From NCBI RefSeq assembly GCF_041886205.1, contig NZ_CP169029.1: DNA of 64,000 nt, one strand, 5' to 3'. Shown in pieces: positions 12,001 to 15,000 of the stretch; position 1 is the first letter of the stretch, and the number at the start of each line of letters is the position of its first letter. Made by a program: the position numbers. The DNA comes from Escherichia coli. GTDB lineage: Bacteria; Pseudomonadota; Gammaproteobacteria; Enterobacterales; Enterobacteriaceae.

Positions 12001-15000
12001 CAGCGGATATCTGTTACGTACCGGTGCGTGGTCGTACCCGGTTCTGCGACTTAAACGGCTGGGCCTGTCAAAAACGTTCCGTCGTCTGGTTGTCACACTT
12101 ACCCGACGTTATGGCGTCAGTCTCATTCATCTGGATGCCGGTGCTGAATGTCTGCCGGGTTTACCCACTTTCGACTGGTAATCCGGAACTTCACAACATG
12201 AAATCATTAACCACGGAAACAGCGCTGGATATTCTGATTGCGTGGCTGCAGGACAATATTGACTGCGAATCGGAAATTATCTTTGACAACGATGAGGATA
12301 AAACGGATTCGGCAGCACTGCTGCCCTGCATTGAACAGGCCAGGGAAGATATCCGTACCCTGCGCCAACTGCGGCTTCTGCACCTGAACCGGTGAGTTTT
12401 ACTCATCATCTCATTCACCATACTTCATTCCCCCGACGCCAGCCTGAATACGGCTGGCGTTTTCGTTTATAAACCAAAAGGGAAACCGATAATGTCAGAC
12501 ATCACAATCTCCCGTCCGGAAGTGGTCACCGGGCATACGGACGTTATTTGCTCAACCTCAGTCAGCCACATTCTGGCTGTGCGAAAGACCACACTGCTGC
12601 AAATCGACACACTTATCCGGCAACTGGCTGAAATTTCAGTACTGACGGAAAGTATTGGCGGTAAAACCGCACTGGACTGGGCGATGAAACAGGATTTTCG
12701 CTGCGGTTGCTGGCTGATGGAAAAGCCGGAAACCGCAATGAAAGCCATCACACGGAATCTTGACCGCGAAATCTGGCGTGACCTGGTGCAACGCTCAGGG
12801 ATGCTGAGTCTGATGGATGCGCAGGCACGTGACACATGGTACCGGTCACTGGAATACGATAACTATCCGGAAATCAGTGAAGCGAACATTCTGAGCACAT
12901 TTAAACAACTGCACCAGAACAAGAATGAGGTATTTGAGCGAGGGGTCATCAACGTCTTCAGGGGACTGAGCTGGAATTACAAAACTAATCGTCCCTGCAA
13001 ATTTGGCAGTAAAATTATCGTCAACAATCTGGTAAGGTGGGACCATAGATTTCATCTTATCACCGGACAACAGGCTGACCGGGTTGCCGACCTGGAAAGA
13101 ATGTTGCATCTGTTCAGTGGCAAACCAGTCCCCGATTGCAGGGAAAACATCATCATTCATCTGGATGACCACATTCAGTCCGCTCAGGGTCAGGAGTGCT
13201 ATGAAGATGAGATGTTCAGCATCAGATACTTTAAGAAGGGTTCCGCGCACATCACATTCAGGAAGCCAGAACTGGTTGACAGGCTGAATGACATTATTGC
13301 AAAACGTTATGCGGGAAAAGTCCCCTCTTCAGTATAAACTTACACGCATCACAGTCCTGAGTCTCGTCCGGAACAAGACTGGCAGGTATATTGCGTTCGC
13401 TGAGCCATTAATGATAATGCCTCAACTGAGTTCAATATACCTCCATGTACAACAACTGTGCTTTGGGGGCTACATTGGGGGCTATATTTTTCAGACAAAA
13501 GAGCCTATATCAATTTAAACAATGAGATAAAGAAATCTCGCCATTCCCCTCTGGGGAGAGGATTAGGGTGAGGGGCGCAAACCCGCTCCGGGGCCATTAA
13601 TTACCCTGAATTTGATTATTTACACCACGGTAACAGGAACAACATATGCAGTTTGACTGGAGTGCTATCTGGCCTGCCATTCCGCTTCTGATTGAAGGTG
13701 CCAAAATGACCCTGTGGATCTCGGTCCTCGGTCTGGCTGGCGGCCTGGTGATCGGATTGCTGGCAGGTTTTGCACGCACCTTCGGTGGTTGGATAGCCAA
13801 CCACGTCGCGCTGGTCTTTATTGAAGTGATCCGCGGCACACCTATCGTCGTCCAGGTGATGTTTATCTATTTCGCCCTGCCGATGGCGTTTAACGACTTA
13901 CGCATCGACCCATTTACTGCGGCGGTGGTCACCATCATGATCAACTCCGGCGCATACATTGCGGAAATCACGCGTGGTGCGGTGCTGTCTATTCACAAAG
14001 GTTTTCGTGAAGCAGGACTGGCGCTCGGTCTTTCACGTTGGGAAACCATTCGCTACGTCATTTTACCGCTGGCACTGCGTCGTATGCTGCCGCCGCTGGG
14101 TAACCAGTGGATCATCAGCATTAAAGACACCTCGCTGTTTATTGTGATCGGCGTGGCGGAACTGACCCGTCAGGGGCAAGAAATTATTGCCGGTAACTTC
14201 CGCGCCCTTGAGATCTGGAGCGCCGTGGCGGTGTTCTATCTGATTATTACCCTGGTGCTGAGCTTTATTTTGCGTCGTCTGGAAAGAAGGATGAAAATCC
14301 TGTGATTGAATTTAAAAACGTCTCCAAGCATTTTGGTCCAACCCAGGTGCTGCACAATATCGATTTGAACATTGCTCAGGGCGAAGTCGTGGTGATTATC
14401 GGGCCGTCCGGTTCCGGTAAATCGACCCTGCTGCGCTGCATCAACAAACTGGAAGAAATCACCTCCGGCGATCTGATTGTCGATGGCCTGAAGGTTAACG
14501 ATCCGAAAGTTGACGAGCGCCTGATTCGCCAGGAAGCGGGTATGGTGTTCCAGCAGTTTTACCTCTTCCCGCATCTGACGGCGCTGGAAAACGTCATGTT
14601 TGGCCCGTTACGCGTGCGTGGCGCGAACAAAGAAGAGGCGGAAAAACTGGCGCGTGAGCTGCTGGCGAAAGTCGGTCTGGCAGAACGTGCACATCACTAC
14701 CCTTCCGAACTTTCTGGTGGTCAACAGCAGCGTGTGGCGATCGCCCGCGCGCTGGCGGTGAAGCCGAAAATGATGCTGTTTGATGAACCGACTTCCGCTC
14801 TTGACCCGGAACTGCGCCATGAAGTGCTGAAGGTTATGCAGGATCTGGCTGAAGAAGGGATGACGATGGTGATCGTGACCCACGAAATCGGTTTTGCCGA
14901 GAAAGTAGCTTCGCGCCTGATCTTTATCGACAAAGGCCGGATTGCGGAAGATGGCGATCCGCAGGTGTTGATCAAGAACCCGCCGAGCCAGCGCTTACAG

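Follow-up and report, generated by a model that had tools for sequence, protein, structure and literature searches.

In a 64,000-nucleotide stretch of Escherichia coli DNA (contig NZ_CP169029.1 of assembly GCF_041886205.1; hereafter the window), a CP4-like genomic island directly precedes glnP and glnQ, and glnH, the first gene of the glutamine-uptake operon glnHPQ, is not found. What became of glnH? A preliminary description of the window had proposed that the gene was either deleted or separated from glnPQ by the insertion. The junction that it reported is confirmed here: the DUF4942 gene that closes the island ends at position 13337, glnP starts at 13646, and a gap of 308 bp lies between them. 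Neither tblastn with GlnH nor blastn with the glnH-plus-promoter region gave a match in the 64 kb, as had been stated. Island DNA precedes glnP, with 100 bp of native leader left. Both glnP (13646–14305, plus strand; NCBIfam equivalog NF007028, 428 bits versus a cutoff of 303) and glnQ (14302–15024, plus strand; matched to 100%-identical relatives) are intact, as described, show no decay and are 100% identical to their counterparts in island-free relatives. The apparent loss of glnH is most probably a window-edge effect of site-specific insertion. We consider it very probable that the island was inserted by an integrase into a BoxC repeat between glnH and glnP, and that glnH was thereby displaced.

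The border of the island was located to a single nucleotide. A megablast search with window positions 13000–14300 against 5,426 complete E. coli genomes returned, for nearly all of them, matches only from 13545 on. In alignments with empty-site genomes, the last island bases are ...AAATCTCGCCAT at 13544, and the native glnH–glnP spacer restarts at 13545 with TCCCCTCTGGGGAGAGGATTAGGGTGAGGGG.... The K-12 spacer, whose match to 13500–13645 had been named as an outcome that would refute the preliminary description, matches from 13545 onward, and in strain 6EVA, where glnH ends 138 bp before glnP, the match from this position is 100%. The remaining native spacer (13559–13645, plus strand), which contains the ribosome-binding region of glnP, has a 100% identical counterpart in island-free strains. 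An assembly artefact is excluded, because island and glnP spacer meet at the identical nucleotide in independent complete genomes and in draft assemblies; among complete RefSeq E. coli genomes, none shows the junction at more than 90.5% identity to the window. An empty-spacer probe detected the uninterrupted glnH–glnP spacer in 5,401 of the 5,426 genomes, and 18 are occupied. The locus is thus polymorphic for presence or absence of an island, and an island at this position is rare.

At 13545 the native chromosome restarts with a 14-bp attachment (att) core, TCCCCTCTGGGGAG (13545–13558, plus strand), which contains the inverted halves CTCCCC and GGGGAG. The core occurs once in the empty site and, in comparator genomes, at both island ends, attL beside glnH and attR beside glnP. 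The empty site reads ...GTTCCCTCTCCCCTCTGGGGAGAGGATTAGGG... (shown also as ...GTTCCCTCTCCCCTCTGGGGAGAGGATTAGGGTGAGGGG...), attL reads ...CCCTCTCCCCTCTGGGGAG|GATCTATTGA... (also as ...CCCTCTCCCCTCTGGGGAG|GATCTATT...), and attR reads ...CTCGCCAT|TCCCCTCTGGGGAGAGGATTAGGG..., with its island side ending in CGCCAT. Both attL and attR of strains 2/0 and ECCNB12-2 follow the pattern TCCCC[T/G]C[T/C]GGGGAG, strain 2/0 carrying the variant TCCCCGCCGGGGAG at both ends. The palindromic arrangement CTCCCC-NNN-GGGGAG would be the layout expected for core-type sites of a tyrosine recombinase. Additionally, two direct TGGGGGCTA repeats lie 60–80 bp inside attR (13464–13484, plus strand), and in comparators a second such pair immediately precedes the start codon of the integrase gene at attL. 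These pairs are read as putative arm-type binding sites because the integrase has an arm-DNA-binding domain; the comparator integrases contain Arm-DNA-bind_3 (PF13356), Phage_int_M (PF22022) and Phage_integrase (PF00589) domains. The earlier statement that no att site is visible at the junction was thus wrong, since the 14-bp core within a BoxC repeat and the paired putative arm-type repeats are both present. A single copy of the core lies in the window, which is why no direct repeat was seen at first reading. No transfer RNA (tRNA) gene lies at the junction, in agreement with that description, the sole ARAGORN call in the window being far off at 25864–25948. A tRNA gene was accordingly rejected as the integration target, which we take to be the BoxC repeat, and Rfam gave no match in window positions 12000–16000.

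The surviving right part of this BoxC repeat (also called PIT or TMECO), TCCCCTCTGGGGAGAGGATTAGGGTGAGGGG at 13545–13575 (plus strand), was read as type A by comparison with empty sites and with the TMECO pattern. In the empty site, the BoxC copy starts ~33 bp after the glnH stop codon, within the 138-bp glnH–glnP spacer. The type-A TMECO pattern is CCCTCNCCC-N3-6-GGGNGAGGG-TTA-GGGNGAGGG (Holder et al. 2015, PMC4666352); the empty glnH–glnP copy reads CCCTCTCCCC-TCT-GGGGAGAGGA-TTA-GGGTGAGGGG, and so departs from the pattern by a single A for G in its second block. The copy is absent from the K-12 table of that study because GGGGAGAGGA misses the strict consensus. In the mechanism that we propose, a CP4-type island would have recombined site-specifically into the spacer with the BoxC repeat as its target. 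The crossover would have fallen within the palindromic core, which would then stand at both borders, by glnH and the integrase gene at attL and by glnP at attR.

Did this event take place in the resident chromosome? Window positions 14000–38000 are 100.0% identical to strains wlxctx60 and 6EVA, neither of which has the island and both of which keep an intact glnH–glnP–glnQ order. The window's genome is a close relative of these island-free strains, and the identity starts at the first base after the island. Island-bearing relatives are only ~98.3% identical (~1.7% different) in the core chromosome right of the junction, which fits insertion into a resident chromosome and not import of the island together with its flanks. 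Homologous recombination, by transduction or conjugation, could also have delivered a whole glnH–island–glnP segment without integrase action in this lineage; in favour of this, islands stand at the site in several unrelated lineages, and their ends recombine freely. However, the known island-bearing donors differ from a flank that agrees with the island-free sisters from its first base, and it would take a coincidence for recombination to end precisely at the att core. We regard such an import as very improbable.

The location of glnH was sought in the comparators. An attL probe running from the 3' end of glnH across the junction into the 5' end of the integrase gene, counted at ≥80% coverage, detected the order glnH–attL–tyrosine integrase gene in 18 of the 5,426 complete genomes, and draft assemblies likewise showed glnH next to the integrase gene. 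In the four comparators that we opened, among them strain 2/0, ECCNB12-2 and Br_112_kylling, as in several drafts, an intact glnH lies 217–229 bp upstream of the integrase gene at the far end of the island, and the islands measure from 27 to more than 58 kb. The island of strain 2/0, ~58 kb long and carrying pap and ireA, has glnH and the tyrosine integrase gene at one end and DUF4942–ISEc10–glnP at the other; ECCNB12-2 shows the same end-to-end layout across 27 kb. The GlnP and GlnQ protein accessions of both strains are the same as in island-free strains. Every comparator island inspected has a tyrosine recombinase gene on its glnH side, and the window covers only the opposite end. By analogy, the left boundary in this strain would carry the TCCCCNNNGGGGAG core and an adjacent integrase gene, left of position 1 together with glnH. 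Of the two fates originally suggested for glnH, separation by the insertion is therefore supported, by the 18 genomes and by the intact gene in the opened comparators.

A deletion restricted to this strain, for example at the left end of the island, would leave glnPQ as an orphan without a binding protein. It would be compatible with the lack of any glnH or GlnH-like sequence in the 64 kb, with a left end outside the window, and with the mosaic and insertion sequence-rich nature of islands of this kind. Yet the junction at attR is clean and site-specific, its core and arm repeats being undamaged, and the glnH 3' end is present in 5,421 of the 5,426 complete genomes, including all 18 with an island-side attL. 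The nearest core relatives also possess glnH, and the undecayed glnP and glnQ are identical to theirs. Deletion of glnH is thus most unlikely.

The insertion has consequences for expression of the operon. The glnH gene has two promoters, the sigma-70-dependent glnHp1 and glnHp2, which depends on sigma-54 and NtrC. In the proposed mechanism glnHPQ would be split, not truncated: glnH would retain both promoters, including nitrogen-regulated control by NtrC and sigma-54, and glnP and glnQ, with nothing but the short native leader, would have to be transcribed from island sequence. As architecture, the preliminary description was correct that glnPQ have lost their native promoters and their linkage to glnH. 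The retained leader includes the region near the glnP ribosome-binding site with which the small RNA GlnZ pairs (preprint 10.1101/2022.04.01.486790). In a crude scan whose counts were at shuffle level, no plus-strand terminator was predicted in 13338–13645, and the nearest plus-strand sigma-70-like site was at 12466–12493, upstream of the DUF4942 gene and after a terminator-like hairpin at 12435–12461. PIT elements are described, in a passage of PMC4666352 that cites earlier work, as having neither promoter nor terminator activity. Because the island genes face glnPQ, neither a terminator nor a promoter is predicted in 13338–13645 and PIT elements appear inert, we infer that read-through from the co-directional island genes would be the simplest source of glnPQ mRNA. 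The near-isogenic island-free strains 6EVA and wlxctx60 provide natural controls for uncoupling of glutamine uptake.

The left end of the comparator islands may allow a further form of regulation. The two genes at attL are co-directional, the integrase gene following glnH after 217 bp, and no terminator is predicted in the gap; RNA folding of the attL spacer does not differ from that of shuffled sequences (z = −1.2). Because of this proximity, common orientation and lack of a predicted terminator, one may speculate that transcription from the glnH promoters under nitrogen limitation could drive the integrase. Excision would rebuild glnHPQ, and the island would then act as a regulated gene-integrity switch.

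Several points weigh against the picture of an integrase-mediated insertion with glnH just beyond it and glnPQ served by read-through. The glnH, attL and integrase of this strain lie outside the window and are placed there by analogy only. In Br_112_kylling (NZ_CP182371.1), the minus strand carries the glnH–integrase junction at 2.567 Mb, and the plus strand the island–glnP junction, 1.6 Mb away at 4.195 Mb, so adjacency of glnH to the left end of an island is not guaranteed. No sigma-70-like plus-strand promoter was found in 13338–13645, although the shuffle-level counts of this crude scan are evidence neither way. Finally, in 14 genomes an ISEc10 copy separates attR from the last island gene, implying that glnPQ have other expression routes there or that their expression is dispensable, and arguing against read-through as a general source.

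The split in Br_112_kylling presumably reflects an inversion with an endpoint inside the island, and several island copies per genome can promote large inversions. An intact glnH could accordingly have been moved far off in the present strain by a large inversion or by inter-island recombination, a reading for which Br_112_kylling is a precedent and with which the mosaic make-up of the island, from modules common to islands at other loci, agrees. However, such a relocation was seen in only one of four fully inspected comparators, and the integrase gene and the glnP junction share a strand at a distance of 27 kb in ECCNB12-2 and of 115 kb in GF60. We give relocation little probability. With site-specific insertion as the preferred reading, glnH in the window's genome has, by analogy with the comparators, almost certainly been displaced past the left window edge and not deleted; the left end of the island would resemble theirs, and the integrase would have catalysed the insertion.

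To our knowledge, BoxC/PIT/TMECO repeats have been without an assigned function since the 1990s. The glnH–glnP copy is not the only one occupied. An identical 397-amino-acid integrase is found downstream of glnH, ycjD and lptG, with RefSeq genomes confirming glnH and ycjD, and the integrase next to zntA shares 98.5% protein identity with it (RefSeq genomes). At the other end, the island terminus corresponding to window positions 13381–13544 is base-for-base identical in islands abutting glnP, gabP, phnP and fabI, and beyond each such terminus the BoxC right half is followed by a locus-specific flank. The BoxC copies at zntA, ycjD and phnP fully match CCCTCNCCC-N3-6-GGGNGAGGG-N3-GGGNGAGGG. The K-12 MG1655 spacers zntA–tusA, ycjD–fabI and yjdP–phnP are TMECO nos. 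16, 9 and 22, respectively, of PMC4666352, and the flanks of these three copies match the attL and attR flanks exactly. Judged from these junction comparisons, at least six loci are occupied, each at the same position within its BoxC copy.

Holder et al. reported extra genetic variability at TMECO sites and found no transposases or integrases near them (PMC4666352), whereas here an integrase family sits inserted in TMECO/BoxC copies. Use of at least six BoxC loci by the same integrase offers a concrete, testable mechanism for strain-to-strain variability at these repeats, and insertion sites will consequently be a misleading guide to relatedness when members of this island family are typed. 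We tentatively suggest that BoxC repeats may be natural attachment sites of P4-like island integrases, so that one type of island could enter any of the ~20–30 copies in a genome, and, more speculatively, that the glnH-promoter switch may be an extension of this relationship. If so, BoxC attachment would account for part of the "genomic instability" reported at these repeats. At the gabP-side attR (L017, 11084–11200), the BoxC copy used is one of an inverted tandem pair, of which only one member is occupied. Inverted tandem BoxC arrangements have been reported at five K-12 sites (Holder et al. 2015, PMC4666352).

Members of the integrase family were found in 99 places in 90 complete genomes. 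Most of these genomes carry a group with 81–86% nucleotide identity, which lies between ulaD and ulaE in the three genomes sampled; ula-type and BoxC-type integrases share 81–84% protein identity. The chromosome side of the ula site reads ...CACTCCCCGGCGGGGAG|GATCTATT... and shows the same 5+3+6 core pattern within the 5' end of ulaE, the look-alike core being TCCCCGGCGGGGAG (L055 2480–2510, L056 2465–2495, L057 23180–23460). A single integrase family thus accounts for gln and ula, the two non-tRNA sites in the list of Biggel et al., and at each of them the insertion interrupts an operon. At ula, only 816 bp of the annotated ulaE are left, and the operon that is split is that for ascorbate.

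How does this island compare with known elements? The CP4 elements of K-12 and most pathogenicity islands sit at tRNA or transfer-messenger RNA genes (thrW, ssrA, pheV/U, leuX, selC). CP4-6, CP4-44, CP4-57 and P4-family pathogenicity islands resemble the present island in carrying a YeeP-like GTPase, DUF932, antirestriction, RadC, DUF987, CbeA/CbtA, DUF5983, DUF957 and DUF4942. Islands of the CP4/P4 family also have, as do the comparators at the gln site, an Arm-DNA-bind_3/Phage_int_M/Phage_integrase integrase at the opposite end, short terminal direct repeats and mosaic cargo. Unlike the CP4 elements, the glnH–glnP island lies within an operon, at a BoxC repeat in non-coding DNA, and several alternative loci carry the same integrase. 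IS1397 and ISKpn1 are insertion sequences with DDE transposases that are specific for REP/BIME palindromes. Like them, the island would target a dispersed extragenic palindromic repeat and so have many alternative sites; unlike them, it would be a tyrosine-recombinase island of tens of kilobases, with BoxC and not REP as its target.

The position itself is on record. The glnH/glnP ("gln") site is one of those at which papGII pathogenicity islands integrate according to Biggel et al. (2020, PMC7686366) and Royer et al. (2021, PMC8097792), who describe the integrases as specific to their insertion sites; islands at this position are known from uropathogenic E. coli and from ST131. The papGII gln-site islands occupy the same position as the island studied here, and strains 2/0 and SCU-387 of those lineages share the window's junction; however, the window island is only 88–95% identical to them over shared modules, and no pap genes were seen in its portion within the window. 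Island type, integrase class and the glnH/glnP position are thus already known. We found no mention of the att core, of the BoxC identity of the target or of other BoxC loci in PMC7686366 or PMC8097792. Nor did we find a paper on BoxC as an attachment site or on its multi-locus use, in a searchable literature that is thin on subscription journals. Provisionally, BoxC as the bacterial attachment site of an integrase acting at several loci is apparently undescribed, as is the look-alike core in ulaE at which relatives of this integrase are found.

The window starts inside the island, and sequence comparison assigns positions 1–13544 (plus strand) to the right-hand part of a CP4-like (P4-integrase family) element. 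This part is a mosaic: positions 1–4190 match a module of cdiBA-carrying islands at 99.8% identity, and 4184–13575 match an island adjoining phnP in another strain at 99.5%. Exact-protein look-ups gave related islands that are up to 98.9% identical at the gln site and 99.5% at the phn site. A related island in CP057953.1 extends more than 28 kb leftward into type VI secretion system-like genes, its end not being reached. The islands that match the leftmost 4.2 kb run on into the cdiB/cdiA contact-dependent inhibition genes, and by this comparison the part of the island left of the window may carry a cdiB/cdiA-type system.

A 243-amino-acid protein of the inovirus Gp2/YagK_YfjJ_C family is encoded at 2582–3313 (minus strand), named after the RefSeq product and an exact protein found elsewhere with PF11726 and PF23343. 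From the gene for a YeeP-like GTPase (6044–6928, plus strand, 294 amino acids; profile and comparator evidence) onward, all island genes are co-directional with glnPQ. The conserved CP4 right-end module follows at 8051–12395 (plus strand), as assigned by Pfam on the 98.9%-identical gln-site locus L015 (offset 2491). It comprises, all on the plus strand, DUF932 (8051–8869), antirestriction (8924–9409), RadC (9410–9901, also called on the window itself), a hypothetical protein of 214 amino acids (10204–10848), the CbeA/YeeU antitoxin (10898–11272), the CbtA toxin (11319–11696), DUF5983 (11693–12181) and a DUF957-like protein of 65 amino acids (12198–12395). The last island gene, an 846-bp open reading frame at 12492–13337 (plus strand), encodes the DUF4942 protein, found as an exact protein with PF13708 in public assemblies. 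The gene content from the YeeP-like GTPase through CbeA/CbtA to DUF4942 is thus that of a CP4-like module at the end opposite the integrase. The non-coding terminus at 13338–13544 (plus strand) forms the attR arm, which in alignments is identical in the islands adjoining glnP, gabP, phnP and fabI.

Other features lie to the right of the junction. The glnQ–ybiO spacer is ~140 bp longer than in other lineages, owing to a stretch at 15025–15163 that 6EVA and wlxctx60 share and L015-type strains lack; judged by eye only, it resembles two inverted REP sequences (BIME). The ARAGORN call, a tRNA-Ser(gct) on the minus strand inside dinG, is probably a false positive, as the 100%-identical reference annotates only dinG there. 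At 27978–31980, wlxctx60 annotates the type III secretion system effector gene espX2 and, between dinG and rhlE, a gene for a 514-amino-acid hypothetical protein, and ECCNB12-2 has a RelE-type toxin pair at this position instead, making it a second variable spot in the window. Past bioA and ybhB, at ~58300–64000, the identical reference contains, besides a gene for a diguanylate cyclase, phage tail genes in truncated form (tail fibre assembly, Lom and TipJ fragments), read as a degraded lambdoid prophage adjoining the bio operon.

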